In this document: piece by piece, positions 1 to 36,570 of the stretch
How the letters are laid out: each line of letters begins with the position of its first letter
How positions within the stretch are numbered: the stretch's first letter is position 1
Source of the DNA: Eledone cirrhosa
Taxonomy: Eukaryota
NCBI GenBank assembly: GCA_964016885.1
Contig: OZ024741.1
Coordinates: 276,830,001 to 276,894,000 of the forward strand
DNA length: 64,000 bases
Direction: 5' to 3'
Notes under the pieces: model-generated
What the model was told of the DNA's origin: nothing
Seen by the model: only the letters and a program-made list of their open reading frames with translations
Database searches by the model: none
Made by a program: the position numbers and the translations under genes

Positions 1-1330
1 GAAATTAAAAATAAAGGCATGATCAAAATAAAATTAAAATGGGGTAAAACAGGTGGTGGAAGGGTGTGGGGCGTGTAGGGGTGGTGGCGGGTGGAGTGGG
101 GAGAGGGAGACGGGGTGTCCGAGCGGGGAGGGCTGAAGGTGGTGTGTGTGTGTGTAGGTGTACGTGTATGTGTGTGTGTGTGTATGTGAAAGCAAGGGTT
201 GAGGGAAGAACGGGGTTGCATGTTCAGGAAGAGGTGTGTGTGGGGTGGGGTGTAGGTCGGAGTGTGTGTGCGTGTGTGGATAGAGGGGTGGGGGGAGAGG
301 GTTCCGGAGGCTGAATGTGTAAATATGTGGTGGTACGCACGTGTGTGTGTGGTGTTTATGCGTGTTGTGGATGTAGGTGGCGTGTGGGAAAAAAAAATTA
401 TTTGTGTGTGTGTCTGGGGTGAGTCTTAAAGGTAATTCCGTAAAAAGATGTGGTGGAATGCTGAGTAAAATCCTGGGATGCGGTAGATTCTCGGGATCAA
501 GGTTCACATATGTGTAATCCGTGAAGAGATTGGTCGGAAGAGGGGAGATGTTGGGTGCGCGCGCAACAGGAAGTGGTCAGAGGGTCAAGGCAGGAGGAGG
601 GTTGTGTGTCTGTGTGTGCGGGGAGGTGATCAGAGGCATAGCAGCAGTAGGGTAGAATGGTAAGTGAAGGTGTGTCCGTGTGTGCGGAGTTGCGGTGGAC
701 AGGGGAGAGGATGGGTAGATGTGAAAGTTGGAGTGAGGAGGGGGGTGTATTAGTAGAGGTGTTAGTGGGATGTGTGAGTGTTTGAGAAAGGGTGTGGGTG
801 GAGCGGGGAGAGACGGGTGTGAGGGCCGATGGAGGGAGTGTAGTGTACTGGTGTGTGTGAGTGGTGAAGGGGGTGTTAGTGGGTGTTAGTATACTGGAGG
901 TGGAGAAAGGGTTGAATGCGGGTGTGAGTGGGGGTCAGTGGTGGTAGGGTGTGTAGAGTGGGTGGTGTAAGTGGGTGTGTGTGTTCGTGTGCGTAGGGTT
1001 GGGGGGTGTTAGTGATGTTAGTTGCGTGTGGAGTGGGTGGTGTAAGTGGGTGTGTGTGTTCGTGTGCTTGGGGTCAGGGGGTGTTAGTGATGTTAGTTGC
1101 GGGGTGGTGGGGTGGATGTGTGTGGGTGAGGGTTAGTGGTGGTAGTAGGGTGTGTGTTTAATGTGAGCGCGAGTATATATGTACCGGTGGGTGTGTTAGT
1201 TGGGGAAGGGTGGTCGGATGTGGAGTGGAGGTGTTAGTATTGTTAGTTGTGGGGTGGGCGGTGAAAAGGAGGGGGTGTGTTAGTGGTGTTAGTGGGGGAT
1301 ATGTGTGTGGGGAGAGGAGGGGCGGTCGAA
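1..1330. repeat. GT-rich low-complexity tract (CA-rich on minus), directly downstream of the Penelope endonuclease fragment
   Basis: Degenerate GTGT/GGGT/gtgttagt units, including a local ~60 bp duplication at 955-1100. Confidence 0.7.
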
Positions 1331-1344
1331 GGCTAAAGGAATAA

Positions 1345-1523
1345 GGGTGGGGAGTTCAGGCCGGGGGGAGTGTGGGTCTGTAGGGTGAAGATGGTTCGTT
1401 GTTCGACTCTTAGGAGATTGGCGGGTGTTCCGTGGCATTGGAGTAGGCCACAGACTGTAAGGTGGTGAGTGGAATGTCCAGGGGCACTAAAGTGGCGGGC
1501 GATTTGGGGAACTTTTTGGCATT

Positions 1524-1525
<2 letters not shown>
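1345..1525 (-). pseudogene. Penelope-like element GIY-YIG endonuclease C-terminal fragment
   Basis: Translation QIARHFSAPGHSTHHLTVCGLLQCHGTPANLLRVEQRTIFTLQTHTPPGLNS matches the PLE pattern ARHF..PGHS..L.V.G...EQ..IF.L.T..P.GLN; truncated by (TA)n. Confidence 0.8.
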
Positions 1526-1609
<84 letters not shown>

Positions 1610-1656
1610 AAATGACAGGTGGGTGGACTGGTGAAATTCCTTAAAGATTTATTATA

Positions 1657-1716
1657 AACACTATGCACATTTCAATGACCGGGCTCTGCATGAACCTGGT
1701 GACATCATCAAGTGTT
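1657..1716 (-). ncRNA. Minimal type-I hammerhead ribozyme, family B (C3U variant)
   Basis: aacac UUGAUGA [imperfect 31-nt stem II] GAAA ugugca UA guguu, with AATAAA just downstream; homologous to 10665 and 13594. Confidence 0.7.
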
Positions 1717-1826
1717 ACGAGAATTATCTAATAAAGGAATATAATAATGGTAGACACAATACAAGGGGATGAAAAATAGAGAGAAATGTTTAAGACCTGA
1801 AGGCGGCCAAAGGCACCAGTTGCCAG

Positions 1827-1899
<73 letters not shown>

Positions 1900-1985
1900 T
1901 AATAATAATAAATTTGAAGACTAAAATCCAAAGAGGGCTCGATAAGGATAAATATATATCAAATATATAACAAACCGTAGAGCAA

Positions 1986-2130
1986 ATATTTATTAAAATA
2001 ACAGATTAAAGTTTAAGCAAAGAATCGCTGCTTTCACCCTTAACGGGATCTTCTGAGTTTCAGAAGATCCCGTTAGGGGTGAAAGCACCGATTCCTTGCT
2101 TAAACTTTAATCTGTTATTTTAATAAATAT
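1986..2130. repeat. Fold-back palindrome of a hammerhead-like module (CAGAAGA-UCCC/GGGU-GAAA), family M
   Basis: ~70 bp inverted arms centred near 2057; the same module occurs at 6300-6360 (+) and 37272-37350 (-). Confidence 0.75.
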
Positions 2131-2235
2131 ATATATATATCTAAGGCAGGTAAAATTCCCGAGATCCATGGACGAGCTCTCTCCAGCGGTCTCTGTCCCT
2201 CATTATCGCTGCCATATCCTGCATCTCCAACAGAC

Positions 2236-2565
2236 CATTGCTGTAGTGGAGTCTGTGCTGCTGTATGGGTCTGAGACTTGGACACTGACCAAGAAACTCA
2301 CTCAGATGGTGGATGGGTGCTACACGAGAATGCTGAGGATGGCTCTGAACATTAATCAGTATACACTGAGGATGAAAAACTCACTGCTGTATGGGAGCAT
2401 CCCAAAAGTCAGCTCAAAAGTGACACAGAGGAGACTGAGGTTGGCTGGACATGCTCACCGACATCCAGAGTTGACATTGCACTCAGTGCTCCTTTGGGAG
2501 CCCCTACATGGACACACTAGAAGAGGAAGACCAAGGTTAACATATGTTGATGCCCTAAGGACAGA
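2236..2565 (+). pseudogene. RTE-clade LINE, C-terminal ORF fragment
   Basis: VESVLLYGSETWTLT...YTRMLRMAL...RRLRLAGH...RRGRPRLTYVD is the typical RTE post-RT region. Confidence 0.85.
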
Positions 2566-2712
2566 CAAATATATATATATATGTAAAAGGTCTATTTAAA
2601 TTGTTGGGATACAACAAGCAAATATTTTTATAACTGATATAAAGCACTCAACAAATATTTGGAGTAAAAATACGATATTAACAAATGGAAACTATATTTA
2701 TAAAACCATATT

Positions 2713-2777
2713 TATTTCATTATACATATTTCAAGGACACCAAGTTAAATTATGATGTGCTTTCATCAGATAAAATA
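2713..2777 (-). ncRNA. Minimal hammerhead ribozyme, family A
   Basis: uauuuuau CUGAUGA aagcacauca...ugguguccuu GAAA uaugua UA augaaaua; homologues at 6072, 39138 and 43231. Confidence 0.75.
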
Positions 2778-3221
2778 TAATATAGATCAGTTTTATAAAT
2801 AAATATTGACATACCCTTAAAAAATGCAACCATTACTGTTGGAAGCTCCCGGATAGTGGAGTTGTAGCTTTAATTATATTATTATTAGTATTGGATATTT
2901 TTATTTTTAAAATAAGCCGTTGGGTTACGGAGAAAGAGAAAGATAAAGAAGGAGAGGGAGAAAAAGAGAGAGAGAGAGACCAAAACAACAGAGAGAGAAA
3001 GATATATATAGAGAGAGGAGACAGAGAGAAGGGGAGAGAACGAAAAACTCATATCTTGTTGAACGAAAAAGTCATATCTTGTTGAGTTAACTTAACAATT
3101 GAGATGAAATGAATAAATAAAATTAGAAATGTTAATAATCATGAATGGAATATACATATATAATATGAGAAATTAACCATTGTTTAAATATGATTAGATG
3201 TTTAGTTAATCATTATAATCA

Positions 3222-3283
<62 letters not shown>

Positions 3284-3479
3284 CATATATATATTTATTT
3301 ATATCCGTGTGTGTGTGGAGTCGTAGCGACACATCCATCTTCTCCATCGCGGGGTACAACTAAAATGTACCGTCCAACCAAGGGTGCAGAAGGGTGGTGG
3401 TTTCCAATTTTTTCACCACAAAGGATCCCTGTTATCTAAATTAACCCCCCCCCCCCACCACTATTCTCATTCCCTTCCT

Positions 3480-3915
3480 AGATGACTTTCTTACTGCAAA
3501 TTGTTAATCTTTTGATGCATGTATATGGATATAGTGTGGTCCCATAACTCTTGATGGAGTCGCAAGGGCACCGAAGATTTCTTTCAGGGAAGCAGAGAGT
3601 GAGTGTTAGAGAGGAAGTGAGAAAGAGATATAAAGGAAATATCGCCCCCAGTATTAGAATGGTACTTTTTATCGACCTTGAAAGAATGAAATGCAAAGTT
3701 GACCTCGGCGGTATTTGAGAGCAGAGAGTCGGAACGATTATCGCTAATGACTCTGCCAAGTCACCGCCTTGATGTTTTTGTATATAGGGACATATAACTC
3801 CTGATAGAGTCGTAGGAGCGCCGAAGTGACATTAGAGCATGTATTGGACATTTTAAACCTGACGGAGCTCATCCCTCTCTAAGTTTGAACAGAGTTGATT
3901 TCTTCCAGAGAAGGA
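3480..3915 (-). pseudogene. Possible decayed Tx1-type ORF1 remnant
   Basis: LEEINSVQ...VRFK, LYPYTCIKRL and IPP resemble the ORF1 segment EDTDFIERG..VSVLFK..MYPSHMGKRI..IPP; nucleotide similarity to 52480-52560. Confidence 0.3.
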
Positions 3916-3944
3916 GAGACTTTACCAGAGATGCTATAATTGGG

Positions 3945-4105
3945 GATATCTCTCTCTTGTCTCCCTTTTTGAATATTGGGATGATCATTCCTGATTGTCA
4001 TTGCTTAGATGTCTTTCTAGAGATCCAGGCCACGCGGCATTCACGAGTCAGCCGGAAAATACCTTCTCTCTATTTAAGGCTTTCAACATCTCGAGTCGAA
4101 TTTCA
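3945..4105 (-). pseudogene. RTE-like LINE reverse transcriptase N-terminal fragment (frameshifted)
   Basis: EIRLEMLKALNRE...LTRECRVAW...SGMIIPIFKKGDKRE. Confidence 0.7.
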
Positions 4106-10435: not shown

Positions 10436-10468
<33 letters not shown>

Positions 10469-10664
10469 TTTTTTAGGTTTGTTGGTTCACCACTGGATAG
10501 AATTGGTCATTCCGTATGGTCAATCTTGGTGTAATATTGTGGAGAGTACTCAACGTAGTGCAGTTCACCCGTCTTCGTTTGTGTAGTTGGTGGTGCGAAT
10601 ACGGAGTTAATTATAAATAAAATAACAGGAGGCTGGACTGGTGTAAATCCTTGAAAGGTTTATT

Positions 10665-10722
10665 ATACTATGATCATTTCAATGACCGGGTTCCATATGA
10701 ATCCAGTGATATCATCAGGTAT
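10665..10722 (-). ncRNA. Minimal hammerhead ribozyme, family B
   Basis: auac CUGAUGA [stem II] GAAA ugauca UA guau AAUAAA; palindromic stem III. Confidence 0.8.
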
Positions 10723-13593
10723 TCGAAATATAACAAAAGAATATGTAAAAAACCATGCGTCCGAAAAATCAGAGACAGAGAGGGCGACTGAGCAACTAGC
10801 TGCTTTCACCTCGGCCAGTCGCCCTCAAAGTGATGGAAACTCAGTCTACTAATGACCATCTGGTGAGGGGACGAAGGCTTATAATGCACTACCACCTCTC
10901 CGTCAAAGAATAAAAAAGAGGAAGAAAGAAAGGAAGAAAGAAGAAAAAGGAAGGAGTCAGCGTAAGGGTCACACTACAGTCATGCTAGAAAACGCCGCGA
11001 AAAATGTTATTCCAAAGAATCTATATTTTAACAAATATATATAATGGGCGTCTGTATGGTCTAATGTGTGAACAGAAAATTGGAACGTTAACTTATGTTG
11101 AGAGTTATAGGATGAAATTAAATTAAAAAATAATAAATTGAAAAATAAATTAAAAAATTATTAGAAAATTAAAGGTTAAGGTAGCGAGATTTATTTAATG
11201 AACTTACAGAGAGAGTCTTATATGAAAAGGTTAATCTCGATAAGATATCAGGATGGGATATAGAGTAAAGATTAAAGCCTTCGATTGTGAATCCCAGCCA
11301 GCACCTCCTAACCACGTGTCAGCCAGTTTCGAGTGGTATCGTCCAGCGAAAGAAATGGAGATTAATTTTTCCGAGTACTCTAGGAACGTAGCTACACTAG
11401 GCCCCGGGTGTGCTAGCGGGAAGTCAACAATTTCGACAGGCCATCGTCTATACCAAACGAATACTATTAATTCACACATGAGGGGTTTATTTACGTGCCA
11501 GTAGAGGCATGATACAGCTAACAGTTATGCCTAAGCCTGGAGTTTATAGGTATAAGTATAACATGGCGGTCAAAACAGGCGGCGCGGCGGGCCCGGGGCA
11601 AAGCAAGTCGCTCCGAGTAATTTCGTTTATCGAAAGGGGTGAAATTTATTTTCCCAAGCACTCAAGGAAAGCTGAACTTTCCGAGCGCCCGGCGCGCAGC
11701 CGGGAAAAGCCACCACATAAGTCGAAGGTAGCAAACCCAATGAAAAGTGCAAATAGACTATAATTATTTTAAAGTCCCAGTTAGTCCGGGTTATAAGTAG
11801 TGTGGTTCTTTGGTGGGTAGGGGGCTATGAAAGGTGCATAATGACCTGAGTAAGGAAAGTTGCAAATAAATAGAAGTAGGATACAAAGATAAAATACAAA
11901 GATAAAGAATACATTGATAAAAATACATTAATAAACTAATAAAAGTAAAAAGTAAAATACATAAATAAAACGTCTTCATAGCTAGGGTAGTGATGTAGTA
12001 AGACGGAAGTATATAAGAACATATCGGAGGAATCAGAGCAAAGGGGAAATACAATATAGATCAAGTTGTAGTAAGATAATACAGGTTGTACATATAGATA
12101 TAGAGGATGGAAGAGATGGAATGGTATCAGGTGGTACTTAGTGTAAGTTCGGGTCTCCGAATTCAGTGTGAGTCACAAAAAAGTCCTGAGGTATAGAGTA
12201 GAGAATTCAGTCAATACAATACACGCTTTAGTATAATACGTAGAATTTTGTCGGAATCCGAATATTCCCGACAAGGAAGCAGCATCGGGTGGGCAGTAGA
12301 CAAAGCACGGAGCAGCCAAAATCCGAATGGTAAGTAGATCAGTTAATCCCATGCTGGCGGTAGCTGTACACTGAAGTCAGTGCCGCTGTTCAATATTACA
12401 TCTGGAAGTACTCAACATTATTGGAGCATTATTTCTTTAGGTTTGTTGGTTCAACACTGGATAGAATTGGTCATTCCGTATGGTCAATCTTGGTGTAATA
12501 TTGTGAAGCACACTACTTATAACCCGGACTAACTGGGACTTTAAAATAATTATAGTCTATTTGCACTTTTCATTGGGTTTGCTACCTTCGACTTATGTGG
12601 TGGCTTTTCCCGGCTGCGCGCCGGGCGCTCGGAAAGTTCAGCCTTCCTTGAGAGCTTGGAAAAATAAATTTCCCCTCTTTCGGTAAACGAAATTACTCGG
12701 AGCGGTTTGCCTTGCCCCGGGCCCGCCGCGCCGCCTGTTTTGACCGCCATGTTATACCTATACCTATAAACTCCAGGCTTAGGCATAACTGTTAGCTGTA
12801 TCATGCCTCTACTAGCACGTAAATAAACCCCTCATGTGTGAATTAATAGTATTCGTTTGGTATAGACGATGGCCTGTCGAAATTGTAGACTTCCCGCTAG
12901 CACACCCGGGGCCTAGTGTAGCTACGTTTCAAGAGTACTCGGAAAAATTAATTTCGATTTCTTTCGCTGGACAATACCACTCGAAACTGGCTGACACGTT
13001 GTTAGGAGGTGCTGGCTGGGATTCACAATCTTTACTCTATATCCCACCCTGATATCTTATCGAGATTAACTTTTTCATATAAGACTCTCTCTGTAAGTTC
13101 ATTAAATAAATCTCGCTACCTTAACCTTTAATTTTCTAATAATTTTTTAATTTTTTAAATTTATTTTTCAATTTATTATTTTTTAATTTAATTTCATCCT
13201 ATAACTCGTAACATAAGTTTAACGTTCCAATTTTCTGTTCACACATTAGACCATACAGACGCCCATTATATATGCCTTTGTTAAAATATAGATTCTTTGG
13301 AATAACATTTTTCGCGGCGTTTTCTAGCATGACTGTAGTGTGACCCTTACGCTGACTCTTTCCTTTTTCTTCTTTCTTCCTTTCTTTCTTTCTTCCCCTT
13401 TTTTATTCTTTGACGGAGAGGTGGTAGTGCATTATAAGCCTTCGCCCCCTCACCAGATGGTCATTAGTAGACTGAGTTTCCATCACTTTGAGGGCGACTG
13501 GCCGAGGTGAAAGCAGCTAGTTGCCCAGTCGTCCTCTCTGTCTCTGATTTTTCGGACGCATGGTTTTTTACATATTCTTTTGTTATATTTCGA

Positions 13594-13651
13594 ATACCTG
13601 ATGATATCACCGGATTCATATGGAACCCGGCCATTGAAATGATCATAGTAT
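13594..13651 (+). ncRNA. Minimal hammerhead ribozyme, family B (inverted-arm copy)
   Basis: atac CTGATGA tatcaccggattc-atatg-gaacccggccatt GAAA tgatca TA gtat. Confidence 0.8.
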
Positions 13652-13687
13652 CACCTTTCAAGGATTTAAACCAGTCCAGCCTCCTGT

Positions 13688-13735
<48 letters not shown>

Positions 13736-14164: not shown

Positions 14165-14660
14165 CGAATCTCCACCGTCTATGATTCCTCCAACCAGGCT
14201 GCCGAGATAGCTACAAAAGTATAATGAAAATTAATAATTATAAACCTACTTTCAAAATCACATTTAAAAAGAACTGGTGTTGTTCATGGCTTTCCTAGAG
14301 ATATTAGTCATATTTAGGGAACGCCCAAATGATTTAGAAGTCGACTTTAAGTAGGAGCAATAACATTTAGAAAGGCATGAACGACACTACATCATATTGT
14401 TTTGTAAATTTTGAAAGTAGGTTTATAAGTGTGAATTTTTATGAATTTTCGTAGTTGTTTCTGTGGCCTAGCGGTAGGTACTAGAGACGGTAGAGATGCT
14501 GGCCTTGGGTTCAATCCTGGTCTGTAATCATTTTCAGTTTTTATTTTACATCCCATAGAAAAAAAACTCAAAAGGTTTACCGGGAACCCTACTCCCGACC
14601 AGGATCAACACCGATTATGATTCCTCCAACTATCCGCCGAGACAGCTAACAATTTATCGG
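14165..14660. repeat. tRNA-like repeat built from two diverged, oppositely oriented halves (B-A-B)
   Basis: tggcctagcggtagg...gggttcaatcctgg (A/B-box-like); the same halves occur at 57490-57930 in A-B order. Confidence 0.6.
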
Positions 14661-16176: not shown

Positions 16177-16207
<31 letters not shown>

Positions 16208-16478
16208 ATAATAATAATAATAATGATTTCATTTATTGGCCACAAGGGCCGACATATAGGGGACAACACAATAGACAGGGACAGTGGGGGTTTACATAGA
16301 GATCGAGTAAGTATAAATAACAAAAAAAACAAAATAACAATAAAAATACAACAATGAAAGTTCCCCAATAAGAGGGATCACCACCCAGGGTTGACTCAAG
16401 CACCCCACCAGTCCTGAGCCACCCGACGCTCCTAGGGCACCCGGGAAGGGCACCCCTCTCCTTCTCGAATTCACCAGC

Positions 16479-19400
16479 CTACAGGCGCATGATCAGAGTA
16501 GGCCCACTCACGCGGGCCATTCTCGCCACATTCACCCACCTTTCAGTAAATGTACTGGGGGGCAGCACTTCTCTCTCCACCCTCACCTTCCTTTCCAAGT
16601 GAAACTTGAAGAAGTTGATGAGGGATTGGCCGAAGAGAAAAGTGTCTGTCTTCAGTCCTTTCAACCTGGTCCACCATGCAACCTCTTTCGCTACTGCCAC
16701 CAGGCAGAGGAAAATTGCCTGCCCTTCCTGACCAAAAGAAGGCGGCGGGTCAATCTTCACTATGGACTCGGACGATAGCCGGATCCGTTCTACACGCGAC
16801 AATAGCTGTTCGACATAACCCCACAAGTCAGCAATGCACGGACACTGGACGAGTGCGTGCAGAACGGTTTCGTCGCTCTGCGCGCATCTCGGGCAGGTTC
16901 GTCTGACAGCACTTCCGTGCCTGTAGAGTTTATCCCGAACCGGCAGCGCCCCCCGGTAGCACTGCCAAGCGAGGGATTTCTGGAAGTTATCCATCGTCCC
17001 CGGCTCGAAAGTCCTCCGGAACATACTGGTCAGTTCTACTTCGTTGACGCCCAGAGCCTCTCCTAGTACGTCATCGCACTTGCCCTCCACTAATCCTCTA
17101 TAGAAATCTTGAGTGGAAGTTCCACTGACCGCATTGCCCACCTTGCAGAGTGCAGTGAGCGCCTGGCAACATTCCAGATGCCAGTCGCCCAGTCTCGGTC
17201 TCTTCTTGACCCAGGACTGCAGCTCAGTCAAAGAGATGAGCTGCGGAAAGGCCCGTCTAACAAACGGCGACCACACCTGTTCACCGTTTAGGCAAAATAT
17301 CTGGAGATGTCGCAGCCTCAGCGCATGTCTGCGCATCATTAGCCACGGCATGCCCAGCCCTCCACGAAGAGGGTGCTGGCAGCAGATGGACCGCCTCACC
17401 AACGGGACCCGTCCCCTCCACAAAAATTTGAAAAGGAGCCGTTCCAAATTGGCGAGGCGTGGACGGGGGCAAGGCACGACGGTCAGGCGGTAGTAGATGA
17501 CGGACGCGATGTACGCGTTCGCCACCTCCGCCCGCCCTTTCAGTGATAGCTTTCTCTCAGCCCATTTCTGGGTGAGGTTGGCTATCCTGCTCGTCACCTC
17601 GTCCCAATTCTTATCCACCTGGAGGTCTGGTCCGAACCAAACCCCGAGCAACTTTACCGGTCCGTCTGTCCAGCGCCCAACGACGCTGTTGGACGGCATG
17701 GACTTGCCTCTCCAGGTGCCGAGCTGCAAGCCCACCGACTTTTCCGGGTTAAGTTTTGCTCCCGTCAACCTTTCATATTCCTCCAAATGGGTGCGGATCA
17801 CCTCGATTTCCGAGGTGTCCGACACCATCACGGTGATGTCGTCCGCATAAGCGGACGCAGCCTTTCTGCGTCCCGGTTCGAGCGGGATGCCCTGCAACAA
17901 CTCCAGCTTCCGCAGTAGAGGCTCAAGAGTCAATACGTACAGAAGTGAGGAGAGAGGGCACCCTTGACGGACCGATCGAGAGATCTGAAACGGTTCCGAG
18001 AGGTGGCCATTAACTTTGACCACCGAGCGGATGCCGCTGTACATTGCAGCGATCCAGCTTCTGAAGACGGGGCCGAAGCCAGCCGCCTCGAGGACAGCCT
18101 CCAAGTACCGATGGTCGACCCTATCGAATGCTTTCGATTGATCTAAATTGATCAGAGCCCCACCGAAGCCAGGTTTGCACCCAACCCTCTCTATGATGTA
18201 TCGCATGAGGTGGAGGTTGTCGTGTATGGACCTGGTCGGGATTGCGCAAGTTTGCGCCTCCCCAACCAAATCTTTGACGACAAGCGCCAACCTTTTCGCT
18301 AACACCTTGGCCAAAATCTTAAACTCTGTGTTGAGCAGGGTTATGGGCCTGAAATTATCTAGTGTGTCCCTCTTGTTCTCGTCTTTCCTTATCAGCGTCA
18401 CAACGCCACGGCTCACAGAACTGGGAATGCTCCCGTTCTGCTGCCAGTTGCAGTAGAGCGCTTCGAGGAGATCGGAGAACAAGTCTGGCATATTTACGTA
18501 AAGCTCGTAGGGCAGACCATCCAAACCGGGTGACTTGCGACTCGAGCAGCCGACAAGGGCGTCCTGAATTTCGGCTGATGTTATCGGCTCTTCGCAGCGC
18601 TCAGCGTCGGCCGTCGAGAGGCGTGGCAAGCCGTCGAGGTAGGGACTGAAGTCCGCCGCCGTCTCCGACTCACCCATCCTCCCGAACAATCGAGCAAAGT
18701 GCTGGCGAAAGGCCTCACACATCCGCTTGGAATCGCTCAGTTCGTGTCCATCTCGATCCGTCAAAGACCGAATTGTGGTTTTATTTCCACGCTGCGTCTC
18801 TGCAAAGCGAGCCCATCGGGCAGCTTTGGTTCCCTCGTTCCTCAGAGCACGCGCCTTAGCTCTGACAATGCAACCTTCGTGTTTCGCATTGAAGAAATGG
18901 TCTAGTGCCATTCTCGCCGCTAGCACGTCTGTTGCAATGCCACTACAAATAGCCTCGTCTAACTTAGCTATCAGCCCCTCCTCCTTTCTATTTTTCTCTA
19001 TTGCTACTTCTTTGCTAAATCCTATCGAGGTTGCTCTAATCTCTCTTTTGAGTGCCCCCCACCACCTGTTGTTGACAACCCCCCCTGTCAACTTTTGCTT
19101 AACTAAGTTGTTGACCCGGTCCCTGTAAGCTTTACGTGCCGGAAACGACATGTTTAGCTTCCAGTAGCTAGGTCCTAACCTACGTGTCTTATCTAGGTCG
19201 ACCATACAGATCACAAGCTTGTGATCTGAATAGGCAACCGTTTTAAAATGTGGACATCCTACACTATTTCTATCTCTTTTCCTAATGAAAATCCTATCTA
19301 TGTACGATCTAGATGACCCTATGCGATTGGTCCAGGTCCATACTGGCGCATTAGGGAAATCTAGTCGGTACCTGTCAGACAGTTGAAACTGGCTGATCAG

Positions 19401-19898
19401 GTACTTGAGGCTTTTGCACCCCCCGCTCCTATCAGATACTCCCACACAATCCCAGCGTGCTTCTAAGATGCCATTCCAATCCCCTATTAACAGTAAAGGG
19501 CGAGACGTAAGCAGAAAGTTTTCCAGGCGCCTAAAGAAGTCCGGCCGACCGGCCCCAGTAGGGGCGTAGACGGCCACCAGTCTAAAGGCACCACCTTCGC
19601 TATTGCTCACGTCCAGGACCACCAACTTTCCGTCAGGATCCCGGAAGATTGACCTTACCTCGAGATCCAGACATTTCCTAAACAGCACAGCCACTCCACC
19701 TCCCATTCCCGGCCGACTAACAGATGCAAAGATCTGATAATCGTCGAAAATCGGCGCCAGTGCGCGTGTGTCGGAAATTCTGGTCTCGCTGATGGCAATT
19801 ACATCCATTCCTAGTGACCTGAGGTCGTTGAGCAAGTGACCTTGCTTCCAGGGCGACCCCAGGCCACGAACATTTAAACTTCCTACTCTTATGGCCAT
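16479..19898 (-). CDS. Tx1-like ORF2: APE endonuclease, reverse transcriptase and C-terminal zinc finger (1139 aa)
   Basis: EN motifs GSLNVRGL, ISETR, VYAP, GDWN, IDRIF, SDH; RT motifs SPGLDGL, FRPITLLN, LDQSKAFDRV, VRQGCPLS, YADD; CPRC...ETVLHALVQC. Confidence 0.97.
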   Translation of the reverse strand: MAIRVGSLNVRGLGSPWKQGHLLNDLRSLGMDVIAISETRISDTRALAPIFDDYQIFASVSRPGMGGGVAVLFRKCLDLEVRSIFRDPDGKLVVLDVSNSEGGAFRLVAVYAPTGAGRPDFFRRLENFLLTSRPLLLIGDWNGILEARWDCVGVSDRSGGCKSLKYLISQFQLSDRYRLDFPNAPVWTWTNRIGSSRSYIDRIFIRKRDRNSVGCPHFKTVAYSDHKLVICMVDLDKTRRLGPSYWKLNMSFPARKAYRDRVNNLVKQKLTGGVVNNRWWGALKREIRATSIGFSKEVAIEKNRKEEGLIAKLDEAICSGIATDVLAARMALDHFFNAKHEGCIVRAKARALRNEGTKAARWARFAETQRGNKTTIRSLTDRDGHELSDSKRMCEAFRQHFARLFGRMGESETAADFSPYLDGLPRLSTADAERCEEPITSAEIQDALVGCSSRKSPGLDGLPYELYVNMPDLFSDLLEALYCNWQQNGSIPSSVSRGVVTLIRKDENKRDTLDNFRPITLLNTEFKILAKVLAKRLALVVKDLVGEAQTCAIPTRSIHDNLHLMRYIIERVGCKPGFGGALINLDQSKAFDRVDHRYLEAVLEAAGFGPVFRSWIAAMYSGIRSVVKVNGHLSEPFQISRSVRQGCPLSSLLYVLTLEPLLRKLELLQGIPLEPGRRKAASAYADDITVMVSDTSEIEVIRTHLEEYERLTGAKLNPEKSVGLQLGTWRGKSMPSNSVVGRWTDGPVKLLGVWFGPDLQVDKNWDEVTSRIANLTQKWAERKLSLKGRAEVANAYIASVIYYRLTVVPCPRPRLANLERLLFKFLWRGRVPLVRRSICCQHPLRGGLGMPWLMMRRHALRLRHLQIFCLNGEQVWSPFVRRAFPQLISLTELQSWVKKRPRLGDWHLECCQALTALCKVGNAVSGTSTQDFYRGLVEGKCDDVLGEALGVNEVELTSMFRRTFEPGTMDNFQKSLAWQCYRGALPVRDKLYRHGSAVRRTCPRCAQSDETVLHALVQCPCIADLWGYVEQLLSRVERIRLSSESIVKIDPPPSFGQEGQAIFLCLVAVAKEVAWWTRLKGLKTDTFLFGQSLINFFKFHLERKVRVEREVLPPSTFTERWVNVARMARVSGPTLIMRL

Positions 19899-19927
19899 GC
19901 TGGCAGGATGAATGGGAGAGGAAAGGT

Positions 19928-21838
19928 TTACTTACCTTCCGGGGTCTTGTGAAGGTCGGGTGGTTCGACCTCCATGGTTTGTGGGGTTTCTTTTGGGAAC
20001 CCCTTTAATAGTCTTGACGTGGGTTTTACGTTCGGGGTTCCCACATCCCGAGGAAAGCTCTTTCGAATTTCTTTGTATGAAGCGAGCGACATTCGCATCA
20101 GAAGCAAATTATCTGGTACGCGAAATGTGCTCGCTTCAAATGTTTCCCCGTCTTTTTCGATGTTTGTGCTTCGTGCTACATGGGCCATCAATTCCTTGTT
20201 GGCCCTTCTGGCGAGCACGAAGTTTTTAATGTTTTGTTGCTCGGGTTTTATTTGTTCGTGTGATTGTGGTGGTGATAGCTTTGTTAGTGTTGTTTCTATT
20301 GTGTCTGCGTTTGTTGTGGGTGGGGTGTCTGTAGTTTCTGATGTTTGTGTGTCTATTTGTTCTTGTGTCTGTTTAGCTTGTTTGCGTTTGGGGGATTTTG
20401 GTGGTTGTGTTGGTGATGCTGTGGGGAAAATGTTTGTGTGGGTGGTGTGTGTATTTTTTTTTGTGGGGGTGTCTGTGCTTTGTGGATTTCTTTTTTTTTT
20501 GTGTTTTGTTTTTTGTATTTTGGGGGACTTTGGTTTTCCCTCATCTTCACTGCTGGAGGATGAGGGGTCTGTGGCTGTGAGCGTGTTTGTGTCTGAGTGA
20601 GTGTTTATGTTCTTGTTCGTGTGTGTATTTTGGGGGGGAGGGGGAATGGGAGAGCTTTCCTCGTTTCCCCCCTGGGTGTGCAATTTTGGTGGTTCCATTG
20701 TTGACGGTGTTGCTGGTGGTCCTTGTCCCGGCGTCGCCAGCAGTGGAATCTTTCGACCCCTTGCGCTTTTCGGCAGTTGAGGGCAGAAGGCTCGCAAGTG
20801 TGTCGTTTCCCCACAAAGGAAACAATGCGGCCTTTTGCCCTCAGTCATTATATGCAACACCCTCCCGTTTTGGAGGCGGATGTGGTCCGGGATTGTTTTT
20901 ACGTTTTCGGGTCTGATTTGGAGCAGTATCTCCAGATCAACCCCGGACCAGTCGTCCCTGGCAGTTCTCGTTGCCTCTACCGGGACTGTATCCGTTCCTT
21001 CCACGATTACGCAACCCAGGAGCCACCACATATCAAGTCCTGGTGGAATCCTGGGAATGCGCACACGTGCTATTCGTTTTCCCATGTGGGAGGGGTACAT
21101 TATGACCTTGCTGGTTTTGCAAGGGGTCATTGAATGCTTCACAGCGAGGGCTTCAGACTTGAACAGCACCGAAACGGTGCCGTATTGCCTGCCCCTCTCT
21201 ATGAAGTCTGTGTCCTCTCTGATGTATTTCAGTGCGGCTTCTATGTCAGCTTGGGCGATTATCGCTGCCCTCTTTGTCTCTACTGAGATGCATCTGAAAT
21301 GCACCGTTCTTTTTTCCACTGCCTCAATGGCTTCTGCCGGGACAGTTAAGTTTGCCCAGGTCTGCTCTTGATTTATGATTTTCCAGGCCTGGGCCAACTT
21401 TTCCTCTCTGTTGGTTAAGTCGATGCTGTAGCATGGTCTCCTTTTAGCCGCTGCCACAGCAGCGAAAGTGTTCTTGTTGGTGTTGTCACTGTTGTTGTTC
21501 TTGTTGGTGTTGCTGCTGCTATTGCTGTTGTTGTTCTCCCCTGTGTCGTGGTTACCTTCTGTGCTGTTGGCCTTGTTGGTGCTGCTGCTGTCGCTACTAT
21601 TACTCTCTGTGCTGTTCGTTTTGTTGGTGCTCTCGCTATTACCACCTTCTGCGCTGTTCGGCTTGTTGGTGTTGGTGTTGTCGCTGTTACCACCTTCCGC
21701 GCCGCTCGGCCCGTTGGTGCTGGCACTGTCGCTGCTCACATTCGTGCTGGTGGCGCTCCTCGCCTCACCTCTCCTCTCAACGCTCAAGTCGCCGTTGCAC
21801 GACAGCAGACCCGCCTCTAGGGGGCGTGGCTCCGCCAT
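19928..21838 (-). CDS. Tx1-like ORF1 nucleic-acid-binding protein (about 636 aa from MAEPRP)
   Basis: First ATG at 21838; S/N/T-rich N-terminus; CCHC knuckle CFLCGETTHLRAFC; basic P/T-rich linker; lies just upstream of ORF2. Confidence 0.88.
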   Translation of the reverse strand: MAEPRPLEAGLLSCNGDLSVERRGEARSATSTNVSSDSASTNGPSGAEGGNSDNTNTNKPNSAEGGNSESTNKTNSTESNSSDSSSTNKANSTEGNHDTGENNNSNSSSNTNKNNNSDNTNKNTFAAVAAAKRRPCYSIDLTNREEKLAQAWKIINQEQTWANLTVPAEAIEAVEKRTVHFRCISVETKRAAIIAQADIEAALKYIREDTDFIERGRQYGTVSVLFKSEALAVKHSMTPCKTSKVIMYPSHMGKRIARVRIPRIPPGLDMWWLLGCVIVEGTDTVPVEATRTARDDWSGVDLEILLQIRPENVKTIPDHIRLQNGRVLHIMTEGKRPHCFLCGETTHLRAFCPQLPKSARGRKIPLLATPGQGPPATPSTMEPPKLHTQGGNEESSPIPPPPQNTHTNKNINTHSDTNTLTATDPSSSSSEDEGKPKSPKIQKTKHKKKRNPQSTDTPTKKNTHTTHTNIFPTASPTQPPKSPKRKQAKQTQEQIDTQTSETTDTPPTTNADTIETTLTKLSPPQSHEQIKPEQQNIKNFVLARRANKELMAHVARSTNIEKDGETFEASTFRVPDNLLLMRMSLASYKEIRKSFPRDVGTPNVKPTSRLLKGFPKETPQTMEVEPPDLHKTPEGK

Positions 21839-22050
21839 GTTTTTTTGAGAAAAAAAATTATTATTTTTTTTCAAAATAAAGTTCAAATATTTGGGCCAAA
21901 AGGCCCAAATATTATGAGTTATTCCTTCACAGGATACAAATTAATGTCTTATAATGCTTCAGCGGTACAAAAAATAAACAATTCTCTACAATTAATCCTC
22001 AAAAATTGCTTACTCACGGAGCTTCAAAAAACGTACATCCACTTTCGTCA

Positions 22051-25000
22051 ATAATAATAATAATAATGATTTCATTTATTAGCCACAAGGGCCGACATGT
22101 AGGGGACAATACAAAGACAGGGATAGTGGGGGTTTACAATAAGATCGAGTAAAAGTGCACAATGGCAAGACTAATTTAACAATGAAAATATAAAAATATA
22201 AAATAAACTATGCATAAATATAACAATAAAATCCCTGATAGGGGGTGGACGACCCTGGGGTGATTCGGGTACCCCACCAATCCTGAACCACCCTGCGCTT
22301 CTAGGGCACCCAGGGAGAGCACTCCTCTCATCAAGTTAGCTAGCCTATAGGCGCATGGTCAGAGTAGGCCCATTCACACGAACCATTCTCGCCACATTCA
22401 CCCACCTTTTAGCAAATGTACTGGGGGGCAGCACTTCTCTCTCCACCCTCACCTTCCTTTCCAGGTGAAACTTGAAGAAGTTGATGAGGGATTGGCCGAA
22501 GAGAAAAGTGTCTGTCTTTAGTCCTTTCAACCTGGTCCACCATATAATCTCTTTCGCAACTGCCACCAGACAGAGGAAAATTTCCTGCTCTTCCTGACCT
22601 AAGGAAGGCGGTGGATCGATCTTCACTATGGACTCGGCCGATAGCCGGATTCGTTCCACACGCGACAGTAGCTGTTCGACATAACTCCACAAGTCAGTAA
22701 TGCACGGACATTGGACAAGTGCGTGCAGAACGGTTTCGTCGTTCTGTGCGCATCTTGAGCAGGTCCGTCTGACAGCACTTCCGTGCCTGTAGAGTTTATC
22801 CCGAACCGGCAGTGCCCCCGGTAGCACTGCCAAGCGAGGGATTTCTGGAAATTGTCCATCGTCCCCGGCTTACAAGTACTCCGGTACAGACTGGTCAGTT
22901 CGACTTCGTCGAGGCCCAAAGCTTCTCCAAGTGCGTCATCGCGCTTGCCCACCACTAATCCTCTATAGAACTCGAGAGTGGAAGTTCCACTGATCGCATT
23001 GCCCGCTTGGTAGAGGGCAGTGAGTGCCTGGCAATATTCCAGGTGCCAGTCACCCAGTCTCGGTCTCTTCTTGACCCAGGACTGCAGCTCAGTCAAAGAA
23101 ATGAGCTGCGGAAAGGCCCGTCTGATAAACGGCGACCACACCTGTTCACCGTTGAGGCAGAATATCTGGAGATGTCGCAGCCTCAACGCATGTCTGCGCA
23201 TCATTAGCCACGGCATGCCTAGCCCTCCGCGTAGAGGGTGCTGGCAGCAGATGGACCGCCTCACCAACGGAACTTGTCCCCTCCACAAGAATTTGAAGAG
23301 GAGCCGTTCCAACTTGACGAGGCGCGGACGAGGGCAAGGCACGACGGTCAGGCGGTAGTAGATGACGGACGCGATGTACGCATTCGCCACCTCCGCGCGA
23401 CCTTTCAGTGATAGCTTCCTCCCAGCCCATTTTTGGGTGAGACTGGCTACTCTGCTCGTTACCTCGTCCCAATTCTTTTCCACCTGTAGGTCTGGTCCGA
23501 ACCAAACCACGAGCAACTTTACCGGTCCGTCCGTCCAGCGCCTCACAACGCTGTTGGACGGCATGGGCTTGCCTCTCCAGGTTCCGAGCTGCAAGCCCAC
23601 CGACTTTTCCGGGTTAAGTTTGGCTCCTGCGAACCTTTCATATTCCTTCAATAAGGTGCCGACCACCTCAATTTCTGAGGTGTTCGACACCATCACGGTG
23701 ATGTCGTCCGCATAAGCTGACACCGCCTTTCCACGTCCCGGTTCGAGCGGGATGCCCTGCAACAGCTCCAGCTTCCGCAGTAAAGGCTCGAGAGTCAATA
23801 CGTACAGAAGGGAAGAGAGAGGGCACCCTTGACGGACCGATCGGGAGAGCCGAAATGGTTCCGAGAGGTGGCCATTAACCTAGACCACCGAGCGTGTGCC
23901 GCTGTGCATTGCAACGATCCAGCTTCTAAAGACAGGGCCGAAGCCAGCTGCTTTGAGGACAAACTCCAGATACCGGTGGTCGACCCTATCGAATGCTTTC
24001 GATTGATCTAAATTGATCAGTGCCCCACCGAAGCCAGGTTTACACCCTACCCTCTCTATGATGTATCGCATGAGGTGGAGATTGTCGTGTATGGACCTGG
24101 CTGGGATTGCGTAAGTTTGCGCCTCCCCAACCAAATCCTCGACGACAAGCGCCAATCGCTTTGCTAACACCTTGGCCAAAATCTTAAACTCTGTGTTGAG
24201 CAGAGTTATGGGCCTGAAGTTGTCTAATGTATCCCTCTTGTTCTCGTCTTTACTTATCAGCGTCACCACTCCCCTGCTCACAGAACTGGGAATACTCCAT
24301 TCTGCTGCCAGTTGCAGTAGTGTGCTTCGAGGAGTTCGGAGAACAAGTCTGCATATTTACGTAAAGCTCGTAGGGCGGGCCAACGAAACCGGGTGACTTG
24401 CGCCTCATGCAGCCGACAAGGGCGTCCTGAATTTCGGCTGAAGTAATCGGCCTTTCGCAGCACTCAGCGTCGACCGTCGAGATGCGCGGCAAGCCGTCAG
24501 GGTAGGGACTGAAATCCGCTACTCTCTCTGACTGGCCACTCTCCCTGAACAACCGAGTAAAGTGCTGGCGAAAGGCCTCACACATCCGCTTGGAATCGCT
24601 TATCTCGTGTCCGTCTCGGTCCGCCAAAGACCGAATTGTGGTTTTATTACACGCTGCGCCTCCGCCACGCGGGCCCAGCGAACAGCTTTAGTTCCCTCGT
24701 TTCTCAGCGCACGCGCCTTAGCTCTGACAATGCAACCTTCGTGTTTGGCATTGAAGATATGGTCTAATGCCATTCTCGCCGCTAGCACGTCAGTTGCGAT
24801 GCCATTACAAATAGCCTCGTCTAACTTATCTACCAGCTCCCTCTCCTTTCTATTTTTCTCTAACGCTAGTTCTTTGCTGAACTCTATCGAAGTTACTCTA
24901 ATCTCTCTTTTGAGAGCCACCCACCATCTGTTGTTGATGATCCCCCCTGTCAACTTTTGCTTAACTAGATTGTTGACTCGGTCCCTGTAAGCCTTACGTG

Positions 25001-26262
25001 CCGGAAATGACATGTTCAGCTTCCAGTAACCCGGTCCTAACCTACGCGTTTTATTTAGGTCGACCGTACAGATCACAAATTTGTGATCTGAATAGGCGAC
25101 CGTTTTAAAAAGTGGACAGCCCACACTATTTCTATCTATTTTCCTAATGAAGATCCTGTCTATATACGATCTAGATGACCCCATTCGGTTGGTCCATGTC
25201 CATACTGGCACATTGGGGAAATCTAGTCGATACCTGTCAGACAGTTGGAACTGGCTGAGTAGGTTCTTGAGGCTTTTGCACCCCCCGCTCCTATCGGCTA
25301 CTCCCACACAATCCCAGCGTGCGTCTAAGACCATTCCACTCCCCCGCTAACAGTAAAGGGCGAGACGTACCCAGAAAGGTCTCCAGGCGCCTAAAGAAGT
25401 CAGGTCGTCCGGCCCCTGTAGGGGCGTAGACGGCCAGCAGTCTAAAGGCACCACCTTCGCTACTGCTCACATCCAAGACCACCAACTTACCGTCCGGGTC
25501 CCGGAAGATCGACCTTACCTCGAGATCCAGTCCTTTCCTAAACAGCACTGCCCCCCCCCCCCCCATTCCCGGCCTGCTAACAGATGCGAAGATCTGATAG
25601 TCGTCGAAAATGGGGGCTAGTGCGCGCGTGTCGGAAATTCTGGTCTCGCTTATGGCAATCACATCCATTTCCAGCGACCGGAGGTCGTTGAGCAGGCGAC
25701 CCTGCTTCCAGGGTGACCCCAGGCCGCGAACATTTAAACTTCCTACTCTTAATATGGCCATATTGGTAAGCTAAGAGAGAGAGAGGGAAGGTTTACTTAC
25801 CTCCCGGGTCTTGTGAAGGTCGGGTGGTTCGACCTCCATGGTTGGTGGGGTTTCTTTTGGGAACCCCTTTAAAAGTTTTGATGTGGGTTTCACATTCGGG
25901 GTTACCACGTCTTGAGGAAAGCTCTCTCGAATTTCTTTGAAGGCATTGAGTGACATTCGGACCAGAAGCAAATCTTCTGGCACGCAAAATGTGCTCATTT
26001 CAAGTTTTCTCTGTTTTTTTGCATTTTGGGGTTTTCCTTCATCTTCGCTGCTGGAAGACAAAGGGTCTGTGTCTGTGAGTGTCTCTGTGTCTGTGTGTGC
26101 GTTTATTGTTTTGTCTATGTGTATAATTAGGGGGGGGGGGGAGAGCTTTCCTCGTTTTCTCCTTGGATTGGTTTTGGTGTTGGTGGTGATCCGGCTGCTT
26201 TTGATGTTGGTGTCCGTGTTTTTGTTGGTGTTGTTTTTGGTGGTGGTGGTGGTGCAGCTTTC
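22051..26262 (-). mobile_element. Second, 5'-truncated and frameshifted copy of the same Tx1 family
   Basis: ORF2 is split into pieces (25291-25761, 24600-25334, 24250-24627, 23880-24281, 22626-23798, 22345-22833); ORF1 C-terminal remnant 25795-26260; same 3' end ...gccacaagggccgacat. Confidence 0.93.
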
Positions 26263-26385
26263 CGTAATAATAATTGTTTCTACTTTTTGGCACAAGGCCA
26301 GCAATTATTCCAGTGCATTACTGGTACTTTATTTTATCGACCCTGTAAGGATGAAAGGCAAAGTTAACCTCGGCGGGAATTGAAA
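26263..26385 (-). mobile_element. 5'-truncated main-family SINE whose (ATT)n tail abuts Tx1 copy 2
   Basis: Reverse complement of cccgccgaggttaactttgcctttcatcc...gccttgtgccaaaaagtagaaacaattattattac. Confidence 0.85.
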
Positions 26386-26463
26386 CAATAATAGTAATAT
26401 ATACGCACATATCACACACACACATATATATATACGTATATATATATACGTATATATATATAC

Positions 26464-26919: not shown

Positions 26920-28120
26920 CTGGTTAATGGTGTGTTGGTGGTAGTGTAGGTGGTAGTGTAGGTGGTAGTGTAGGTGGTGGTGATGGTAGTAGTAGTGGTG
27001 CTGATGGCAGTAGTAGTGGTGGTAGTAATATTGGTGGTGGTGATGGTTCTGGTAGTGATGGTGGTGTAGGTGGTGGTGGTGGTGGTGCTAGTATTATTGG
27101 TGGTGATGGTGGTGGTGCTGGTAGTAGTGGTGATACTATTATTGTTAGTGATGGTGCTGGTAACGGTATAGGTGGTGGTGGTGGTGGTGGTGGTGGTGGC
27201 AGTAGTAGTGAAGGTGTAGGTGGTGGTGGTGGTGGTGGTGTTGGTAGTAGTGGTGATAGTATTATTGGTGGTGATGGTGGTGGTGGTGGTGGTGATGGTG
27301 ATGGTGGCAGTAGTAGTGATGGTGTAGGTGGTGGTGGTGGTGGTGTTGGTAGTAGTGGTGATAGTATTATTGGTGGTGATGGTGGTGGTGGTGGTGGTGA
27401 TGGTGATGGTGGCAGTAGTAGTGATGGTGTAGGTGGTGGTGGTGGTGGTGTTGGTAGTAGTGGTGATAGTATTATTGGTGGTGATGGTGTAGGTGGTGGT
27501 GGTGGTGGTGTTGGTAGTAGTGGTGATAGTATTATTGGTGGTGATGGTGTAGGTGGTGGTGGTGGTGGTGTTGGTAGTAGTGGTGATAGTATTATTGGTG
27601 GTGATGGTGTAGGTGGTGGTGGTGGTGGTGTTGGTAGTAGTGGTGATAGTATTATTGGTGGTGATGGTGGTGGTGGTGGTGGTGATGGTGATGGTGGTAC
27701 TATTATTGTTAGTGATGGTGCTGGTGACGGTATAGGTGGTGGTGGTGGTGGTGGTGGTGGTGGCAGTAGTAGTGATGGTGTAGATGGTGGTGGTGGTGGT
27801 GTTGGTAGTAGTGGTGATAGTATTATTGGTGGTGGTGGTGGTGGTGGTGGTGGTGATGGTGATGGTGGCAGTAGTAGTGATGGTGTAGGTGGTGGTGGTG
27901 GTGGTGTTGGTAGTAGTGGTGATAGTATTATTGGTGGTGGTGGTGGTGGTGGTGGTGGTGGTGATGGTGGTAGTGGTGGTGGTAGTGTAGGTGGTGGTGG
28001 TGGTGGTGGTGGTGGTGGTGATGGTGGTAGTGGTGGTGGTAGTTGTGGTGGTGGTAGTTGTGGTTCTGGTGCTGATGGCAGTGGCGGTAGTTTTATTGAT
28101 GGTGTTGGGGTAGGAAGGTA
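26920..28120. repeat. (GGT)n-derived minisatellite with ~60 bp higher-order units
   Basis: Repeated ggtgatggtgtaggtggt...gttggtagtagtggtgatagtattatt. Confidence 0.9.
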
Positions 28121-30234: not shown

Positions 30235-30827
30235 TGGCTGCCAACTCGTTTTCGAGTACGGCCTCTACTTTATATCAATGTAGGAGAACCCCTACCGATG
30301 CGCTGAACGTGAGTGACTTTTTAGTCCAGCCAGTGACTTGAAAACTCTGGTACAAACACTACACCTGTGACAATTATTGACACATAGTGCTGGTTCCATG
30401 TGACGACAAGTGCAGAGAGATCTGCAGATATAAAGCAATGCCTGTGCCGTGAAGCTTTTATAGTGAGCAAAGGCACTGCACAAAACCAGTCCCACTCTCT
30501 TAACCAAGATGATATTTACCAAAAAGAAGAACAAGTCAACATCATCGGATACTATCAGGGCTGCAGGTGTTATATCAGAGTTTTCCTTCTCCTAGAATTC
30601 TGCCTTGACAAAGGCTAAGGGGTCATCTCTCCCGGTGATTGTGGATGGCCATTGACTCTTAAGAGCTCCTTTGCTCTTTGACAGGTTTTGTTTTTAGTCC
30701 TGCAGGATGTCCAAAGTCACCCTCCTCACCAAGAAACCTTGGTGGGGTTGCCAGTTTAGTCGCCAACGACCATGAGACAGGTTGTACTGGGATACATGTT
30801 ACCAGTAGCACCAACTGGTGACCTGAC

Positions 30828-36376: not shown

Positions 36377-36439
36377 CTAACAAATAGTTTATCGCTCTAC
36401 ATGGCTGAATAGAATAAAAGTAATCTGAGGTTTTCGAAT

Positions 36440-36570
36440 ATTAATAATTGTTTCTATTTTTGGCACAAGGCCAGCAATTATCACAGTACATTACTGGTAC
36501 TTTAGTTTATCGACCCCGTAAGAATGAAAGGCTCGGCAGGATTTGAACTCAGACCGTAAAGGGATGCAAC
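36440..36570 (-). mobile_element. Main-family SINE fragment
   Basis: ttgtttctatttttggcacaaggccagcaatt...atttgaactcag. Confidence 0.75.

Follow-up and report, generated by a model that had tools for sequence, protein, structure and literature searches.

A 2-kb non-coding unit with hammerhead motifs in Eledone cirrhosa DNA, likely mobilised as a passenger of Penelope-like elements

What machinery would copy a non-coding stretch that has one 70-bp sequence at both of its ends, lies head to head with a partial mirror copy of itself and sits between two (TA)n runs, and was its template a circular RNA or a longer linear one? The locus lies in a 64,000-nucleotide stretch of Eledone cirrhosa DNA (the window), from a microsatellite-rich genome with LINE copies. 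The insertion spans ~3.2 kb and consists of a 1,964-bp non-coding unit on the minus strand and a head-to-head partial inverted copy; its parts, with one related sequence from elsewhere in the window, are as follows.

10436-10451, no strand: left-end (TA)n run, into which the element likely inserted.
10451-10474, minus strand: A24 tract in the sense direction; 10451-10471 is untemplated by the internal repeat copy (slippage or A addition).
10472-10611, minus strand: 140-nt 'tail' past the main 3' end, in the direct arm only.
10472-10541, minus strand: 3' copy of the 70-bp terminal repeat, forming the outer half of the tail; 69/70 against 12436-12505.
10612-10744, minus strand: pLTR-like 3' module common to sister families, with the main 3' end at 10612-10619; 76% to 1608-1742; depth peak.
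10659-10664, minus strand: AATAAA that closely follows the predicted cut on its 3' side, with 187 nt between it and the A-tract; the inverted arm has lost it.
10665-10722, minus strand: minimal type I hammerhead motif, with the predicted cut between 10669 and 10668.
10780-10826, minus strand: 11-bp G+C-rich hairpin, the sole clearly structured 120-nt window of 32.
10745-12435, minus strand: unit body, non-coding, multi-copy in related runs.
12391-12503, minus strand: perfect 10-bp inverted repeat, 12391-12400 with 12494-12503.
12436-12505, minus strand: 5' copy of the 70-bp repeat, the 5' end of the direct unit.
12506-13693, plus strand: inverted, 5'-truncated, tail-less copy, by sequence comparison.
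13594-13651, plus strand: second minimal hammerhead motif, facing outward.
13693-13732, no strand: (TA)20 abutting the end of the inverted arm.
1608-1742, minus strand: 3' end of a sister family (76%), which stops where the inverted arm stops and adjoins (CT)n(TA)n.

An earlier note on this DNA had described a 1964-bp unit with the same 70 bp at both ends and a ~1.19-kb inverted copy at 12506-13693, and both are present. The direct unit runs on the minus strand from 12505 to 10472; its terminal repeats differ at one of 70 positions (10490 C versus 12454 A), the distance between them gives the period of 1,964 bp, and the direct copy is 1.04 units long, stopping 70 nt into the next repeat. The inverted arm, 12505/12506-13693 (13700) on the plus strand, aligns with 11808-10619 (10612) at 94.5% identity over 1,213 columns, with 34 substitutions and 7 indels, and the arms meet head to head at 12505/12506 with an overlap of ~1 nt. 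Counted from the junction, 12506-13693 is the equivalent of 11807-10619, truncated at its 5' end and without the tail, and the left end of the insertion reaches 140 nt past the counterpart of the end of the inverted arm. That left end is a T-run of 24 nt (10451-10474) adjoining (TA)n, 3 nt of which are templated by the repeat; a run beside (TA)n is thus where the earlier note had seen a ~23-nt poly(A), but 'poly(A) tail' is an interpretation of it and not an observation. At the right end (TA)20 is flush with the inverted arm, and no unit sequence lies to the right of 13732. No target-site duplication was found at the insertion ends, where (TA)n would mask one, and the sole shared 5-mer lies away from the ends.

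The unit encodes no protein that we or the earlier note could recognise: the longest stop-to-stop frame in the doubled unit is 97 aa, and none of 18 frames of the unit reaches the Pfam cut-off. Frame 12176-12376, picked for a stretch that we take to resemble the reverse transcriptase (RT) motif of Penelope-like elements (PLEs), has no longer relative in the homologue search, which is weak evidence, and the search with frame 11482-11760 came back empty. One match was returned when frame 12505-11939, read through three stops, was compared with 1.84 billion proteins (E 1.5e-5, an Ig-repeat protein); we judge it to be chance because its score is the sum of four repeats of 8-11 bits each. No RT or GIY-YIG remnant was found in the frames tested, and elsewhere in the window a PLE domain was found in 0 of 136 short frames (at least 55 aa; 16,200-26,400 and low-complexity frames omitted). 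Searches for a tRNA gene, a Pol III box or a clear intron signal were likewise negative. The G+C content of the unit is under 45% and its self-pairing is slight, with 1 of 32 sense-strand 120-nt windows at z < -2.

The minus-strand hammerhead motif has its core at 10718-10669 and a stem I formed by 10722-10719 with 10668-10665. Of the two features that the earlier note had placed within 10665-10722, the hammerhead motif is there, but the AATAAA lies just outside, at 10664-10659; the second motif that it had described, pointing outward in the inverted arm, is present on the plus strand with its core at 13598-13647. The motif's stem I is 4 bp long, its stem II spans ~12 positions, two or three of them mismatched, and its stem III is tiny and palindromic; a U-U lies beside the core at position 10.1-11.1, where the conserved G-C is absent. 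When the unit was dinucleotide-shuffled 2,000 times, a loose type I descriptor matched in 3 of the shuffles; run over the whole window, it gave 11 hammerhead-like matches, two of them within this element. Rfam returned no hammerhead across the window at the gathering score or at the locus at E <= 10, with weak matches to the TA run and two others. In plain single-strand folding the hammerhead was not favoured over shuffles (z -0.29 and -0.07), and in self-cofolding the dimeric hammerhead was not the best structure, neither result being a measure of activity. The sister copy at 1608-1742 differs from the unit in both of these stems: the change in stem I is compensatory, and those in stem II are compatible with pairing. 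A further candidate hammerhead in the 10780-10826 hairpin was dropped, its core not being intact. Each strand at the locus holds a single motif, with no same-strand tandem pair here. A 'minimal' hammerhead has been described for the pseudo-LTRs (pLTRs) of PLEs; it cleaves poorly in vitro and has been proposed to function in dimeric form (PMC4209133). For the motif here, weak activity is predicted, and that for the dimer alone; copying would not depend on it.

Of eight public runs, none of them on record as RNA, four (X1, X4, X5 and X6) were compared with 10476-12505; they appear to belong to a related species, given fixed differences (the whole X1 depth, for example, shows 10758 C>G). Bins of the unit were covered to 30/30 in X1, 29/30 in X4, 16/30 in X5 and 30/30 in X6. 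Summed depth, which does not equal copy number, was in X1 525,183 over 10612-10679, ~105,000 over the tail, 16,223 over 10748-10815 and 1,310-3,971 over 11836-12379, and in the 5' body a single variant site had up to 17 contigs; X6 is a RAD-seq run whose read-start pile-ups sit on CATG. This polar depth, high at the 3' end, is that of a multi-copy body with a 5'-truncation gradient. Loose ends behind 10742 and 10744 (202 and 169 reads) lead into sister families, seen only as 30-letter loose ends, that have only the 3' module in common with the unit, so that much of the peak 3' depth is theirs. Among the best 40 of 294 variant rows, in a table that holds only sites at which reads depart from the direct arm, the inverted arm carries the letter of the independent runs at 9 of the 25 rows inside the arm; at 11253 and at the single-base indel 11089, the states of both arms occur commonly in other copies. 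Pattern scans of public collections gave 0 and 0 matches in metagenomes, 1 and 0 in viral contigs, and 1, 0 and 0 in prokaryote genomes; the matches, L001 and L002, were set aside as chance: they lie in DNA of prokaryotes or phages, and BLAST matched neither of them to the window. A fold-back or TIR DNA transposon was also rejected, since the left end is 140 nt longer than the arm and depth is polar and 3' high and not that of a whole element.

Among the best 24 of 464 loose-end rows, related copies end at two recurring 3' sites ~140 nt apart, equivalent to 10612-10617 and 10466-10472. At 10616/10617 a microsatellite lies beyond the ends (237 and 152 X6 reads among the rows listed). Ends with (TA)n at 12430/12436, the equivalent of the tail end, comprise 228 X6 reads and 9 X1, 2 X4 and 1 X5 contigs; the tail-end sites are read at the internal twin 12429-12436 and at 10478. 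TA repeats stand in five of the six listed tail-end rows and an A-tract in none of them, reads off the left end at 10476 not being among the six, and polyadenylation as a feature of the family was rejected on this count. We place the main 3' end at 10612-10619 because the sister copy at 1608-1742 stops exactly where the inverted arm stops, and 10611-10472 is then an extension carried by one arm only. Two recurring 3' ends are the 'tail' signature reported for PLEs (PMC11167929, PMC3846280). They also argue against random permutation: the earlier note had read the element as circularly permuted, and free permutation is not supported by copies in independent runs that end at two recurring sites. 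The outcome that it had said would overturn its reading, fixed ends within a longer coding PLE or DNA transposon, was found in its first half, the fixed ends.

The 20 nt before the tail end are 75% A+C, in the top 3% of 20-mers. The 10-bp repeat 12391-12400/12494-12503, found post hoc, has predicted pair probabilities of 0.88-0.99, with 35 of 5,000 shuffles doing as well; as modelled, the stem would enclose the A+C-rich tail-end site, and would do so only in read-through RNA. An A+C-rich tail end inside a predicted stem echoes the 'AC-rich stem loop' described for a lizard PLE (PMC11167929).

Lopsided mirror structures of this kind recur nearby. The window holds four other lopsided fold-backs, at 1986-2130, 37945-38201, 39495-39686 and 39836-39958 (arm identities 68/72, 116/129, 95/96 and 61/61), in each of which (TA)n lies no more than a few bases from one end and the other side is extended by very roughly 60-110 nt; ~5% of random points lie equally close to a TA run. 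One of the four has an intact hammerhead motif in both arms. An independent opposite-strand joint, 10780/11690, was present in one X1 contig.

Our preferred reading, to which we give a probability of about 0.68, is that the insertion belongs to a multi-copy non-coding 1,964-bp family with two fixed ends and a PLE-type hammerhead, likely copied in trans by the RT-endonuclease of an autonomous PLE from uncut read-through RNA. Published PLE insertions are described as having a 5'-truncated inverted copy beside the 5' end and a 30-40-bp tail at one end, often in (TA)n (PMC8557442, PMC3846280). The locus has an inverted 5'-truncated copy by the 5' end and a tail at one 3' end that repeats the unit start; its 3' repeat holds a hammerhead of the minimal type I form, its target is (TA)n, and the family is multi-copy with frequent 5' truncation; an ORF with a telomerase-like RT and a GIY-YIG domain, the mark of an autonomous EN+ PLE, was not found. 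In vitro, the lizard PLE protein is reported to cut and extend both DNA strands (PMC11167929, Frangieh et al. 2024), and its RT to start inside the RNA at two sites in an AC-rich stem-loop, the spacing of which equals the tail (PMC11167929). In the same in vitro work hammerhead cleavage was reportedly not required, unprocessed RNA being the main template (PMC11167929).

Applied to this locus, the partner enzyme would cut both strands inside a (TA)n run. The left strand would prime at the outer start site, 10472, and copy the tail, the 3' module and the body, and copying would halt 70 nt into the next repeat, so that no circle is needed for the terminal redundancy. On the right strand, synthesis would prime at the inner start site (the 10612-10619 equivalent) and copy 1.19 kb, after which the two copies would be joined by their heads, overlapping by about one base; alternatively, the second arm may have arisen by fold-back copying of the first cDNA. 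The arms may come from two RNAs or from fold-back: the variant rows noted above show both arm states to be common at two sites, but the overall divergence of the arms (34 substitutions in ~1,190 bp) is compatible with the 1 in 70 of the terminal repeats and would also fit ageing after insertion. Terminal redundancy implies a template of more than one unit, as the earlier note had argued and as the 70-bp repeat and the period of 1,964 bp bear out, and a partial tandem transcript serves as well as a circle. The long dsRNA that it had expected from read-through is also predicted here, with 992 nt in identical runs of at least 21 nt between the arms. Of its overall reading, a non-coding, hammerhead-bearing retroelement unit survives, whereas free permutation and polyadenylation do not.

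Some features of the locus stand against a PLE passenger. No full upstream direct pLTR is present at the locus, the 140-nt tail is far above the usual 30-40 bp, and the G-C at 10.1-11.1 is replaced by U-U. No autonomous partner was found among the frames tested in the window, and the unbridged stretches described below leave room for a longer coding parent.

The first of the competing explanations is a giant non-LTR retrozyme, in which a dimeric hammerhead would cut a multimer at 10669/10668, ligation of the product would give a 1,964-nt circle, and this would be copied by a PLE enzyme from the fixed tail site for one lap plus 70 nt. The proposal of a circular PLE intermediate dates from 2014 (PMC4209133), and circular RNA has been demonstrated for small animal retrozymes of 170-400 nt (PMC7229834, Cervera and de la Pena 2020); the redundancy calls for a template exceeding one unit, the stems of the hammerhead show co-variation between families, and fixed start sites are compatible with a circular template. 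We nevertheless consider this unlikely, because the same-strand hammerhead tandem is absent at the locus, this copy ends at 1.04 units, self-pairing is little (the 1 of 32 windows above), minimal hammerheads are described as cleaving poorly (PMC4209133) and here lack the G-C at 10.1-11.1, and the in vitro work on the lizard PLE reports the use of unprocessed RNA and no RNA reads ending at the cut site (PMC11167929). Judged by what defines a retrozyme, the unit is non-coding, low in G+C and equipped with a type I hammerhead (in the minimal, not the canonical form), but at this locus, and in 120-nt windows, we found neither two or more same-strand units with a hammerhead, nor a small unit, nor high self-pairing. 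A bolder version would make the family a 2-kb hammerhead-processed circular RNA parasite of PLEs, read from a fixed A+C-rich site within a stem, with a 270-bp hammerhead-plus-tail cassette swapped between several non-coding bodies and sufficient to move kilobase cargo; we regard it as similarly doubtful.

Next in order, and also improbable, is a gutted copy, in which a coding PLE would have lost its ORF, here or in a minor subfamily, and the unit would consist of its long untranslated parts. PLE copies are described as often internally deleted (PMC3846280), and among the best 24 of 4,482 pieces four stretches are unbridged by the listed contigs (10895-10961, 11131-11155, 11841-12052 and 12358-12430); one X4 contig departs from the body at 12329 and runs 141 unlike letters past it, and sister sequences branch at 10742/10744. 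Against this, X1 depth is flat (the 1,310-3,971 over 11836-12379, and a single variant site has as many as 17 contigs), no internal breakpoint was found among the loose ends or joints listed, the frames tested yielded no RT or GIY-YIG remnant, and an untranslated region of 1.7 kb would be very long. An assembly artefact (a fold-back chimera), or two unrelated neighbouring insertions, is very improbable: the junction is known from the assembly alone and inverted PLE structures are reported to trouble assemblies (PMC8557442), but an assembly fold-back would yield identical arms, whereas these differ by 34 substitutions and 7 indels and the inverted arm has the letter of independent runs at the nine variant rows noted above, and each outer end is a family 3' end in (TA)n, with the unit ending by 13732.

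Taken as a PLE-mobilised insertion, the locus has an ordinary side and an unusual one. The mirror arm, the terminal repeat and the outward hammerheads are an ordinary PLE footprint and would not surprise a specialist. Unusual are the 140-nt tail, the predicted stem round the outer start site and the size, which the earlier note had already called long for a retrozyme-type element: at 1,964 bp the unit is about twice the longest animal non-LTR retrozyme in the literature consulted (972 bp) and lies beyond the 1,000 bp to which the latest survey of retrozymes was limited (10.64898/2026.07.22.740005). Our literature search, mostly of titles and abstract openings, found no 2-kb hammerhead-bearing non-coding animal PLE unit, and Repbase or Dfam may already catalogue the family. 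A family free of ORFs offers a clean test of whether PLE templates are circular or uncut read-through RNA, and of which short cis module suffices for kilobase cargo; a 2-kb circle, if true, would be the first support, in the literature searched, for the 2014 circle model near PLE size.

Having no ORF, the unit is not an autonomous PLE, and its arrangement and size set it apart from retrozymes; it behaves as a PLE passenger. Like EN+ PLE insertions as described (PMC3846280; Craig et al. 2021, PMC8557442; PMC11167929), it has an inverted truncated copy, a one-end tail and two 3' end sites, together with a 5' truncation gradient, a (TA)n target and a hammerhead near the 3' end; unlike them, it is without an RT/GIY-YIG ORF and without a complete upstream direct pLTR, its tail is 140 nt against 30-40 bp, and its inverted arm is 1.19 kb against ~0.2 kb in the rotifer PLE examples reported. 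Like minimal PLE hammerheads, its motif is type I with a 4-bp helix I, a long helix II, a small palindromic helix III and nearby opposite-strand motifs, but it has no G10.1-C11.1 pair, its helix II of ~12 positions holds two or three mismatches, and the motif is a predicted one.

Animal non-LTR retrozymes have been argued to be PLE derivatives, with consensus lengths of 51-972 bp from a survey that searched periods up to 1,000 bp (10.64898/2026.07.22.740005, Li, Clavereau and Pollet 2026). The unit resembles them in being non-coding, in its type I hammerhead, in its G+C below 45% and in its proposed movement by PLEs (PMC7229834; 10.64898/2026.07.22.740005), but it measures 1,964 bp against the reported 150-450 bp (51-972 bp consensus range), forms 1.04 units plus an inverted arm and not a tandem array, carries a minimal and not a canonical motif, and is not highly self-paired. 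Non-autonomous PLEs are on record as MRC1 and Chlamys-N4 of Chlamydomonas (PMC8557442; PMC9977147; 10.1101/2022.06.16.496473), which, like this unit, are described as non-coding and 5'-truncated, with a 3' end common to other PLE families and a microsatellite target. The Chlamys elements are reported as mostly without a canonical hammerhead, with (CA)n or (C)n targets and a known partner, whereas here a partner was not found. Non-coding cargo between rotifer pLTRs is also on record (PMC3846280, Arkhipova et al. 2013); those cargoes are described as single events (PMC3846280), whereas the body of the unit reported here is multi-copy.

Small fold-back insertions recur in the window. Each lies flush against (TA)n at one end and has an extension at one side, that is, a stretch carried by one arm only:
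1986-2130, small fold-back insertion
37945-38201, small fold-back insertion
39495-39686, small fold-back insertion, both arms with a hammerhead motif
39836-39958, small fold-back insertion

The extension lies at the left in five of five cases (these four and the main element), a bias that is not significant by itself. Seven further hammerhead-like motifs represent at least three families, and most have a (TA)n end:
2769-2721, minus, minimal type I hammerhead-like motif
36680-36634, minus, the same
39146-39194, plus, the same
43239-43287, plus, the same
47253-47282, plus, the same
55352-55414, plus, the same
59703-59733, plus, the same

The remaining repeats and coding traces include the following:
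16380-20157, minus, tandem LINE copy with AP-endonuclease, RT and zf-RVT domains
22249-26020, minus, tandem LINE copy with the same domains
26928-28064 and 28171-29746, long trinucleotide-based arrays, G-rich and C-rich
26265-26384, 36434-36573, 45592-45795, 46666-46870, 53763-54418, 57970-58158 and 62043-62249, dispersed repeat of ~190-200 bp

The LINE copies share 89% identity, and the one at 16380-20157 retains an open 1,150-aa frame with a 670-aa frame upstream. A 162-aa frame at 2111-2599 (plus) resembles a LINE ORF end by eye and had no Pfam matches; a C2H2 zinc-finger match at 30295-30591 (minus) was weak and under the cut-off. The arrays lie head to head with ~70% complementarity, the second having a 54-bp period. 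The dispersed repeat, with at least seven copies in the window (80-93%), is probably a SINE or retroelement end. Imperfect palindromic repeats at 14168-14656 and 57490-57923 are mutually related (78-85%); a tRNA-like stretch was noted by eye, and ARAGORN found no gene.

The strongest hairpin of the 1,964-bp main unit falls within 10745-10827, and it may be an added module because, among the contigs listed, one from X4 (a public DNA run, apparently of a related species) lacks those 83 bases. Among the loose ends listed, two distinct sister sequences diverge in reads at 10742-10744 (202 and 169 reads in the RAD-seq run X6; also in X5, both runs apparently of a related species), and one of these sequences may represent the hypothetical autonomous partner's 3' end. 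The inversion junction at 12501-12512 is a mini-palindrome of 4 bp with a 3-nt loop, and PMC3846280 records palindromes at the inversion junctions of Penelope-like elements.
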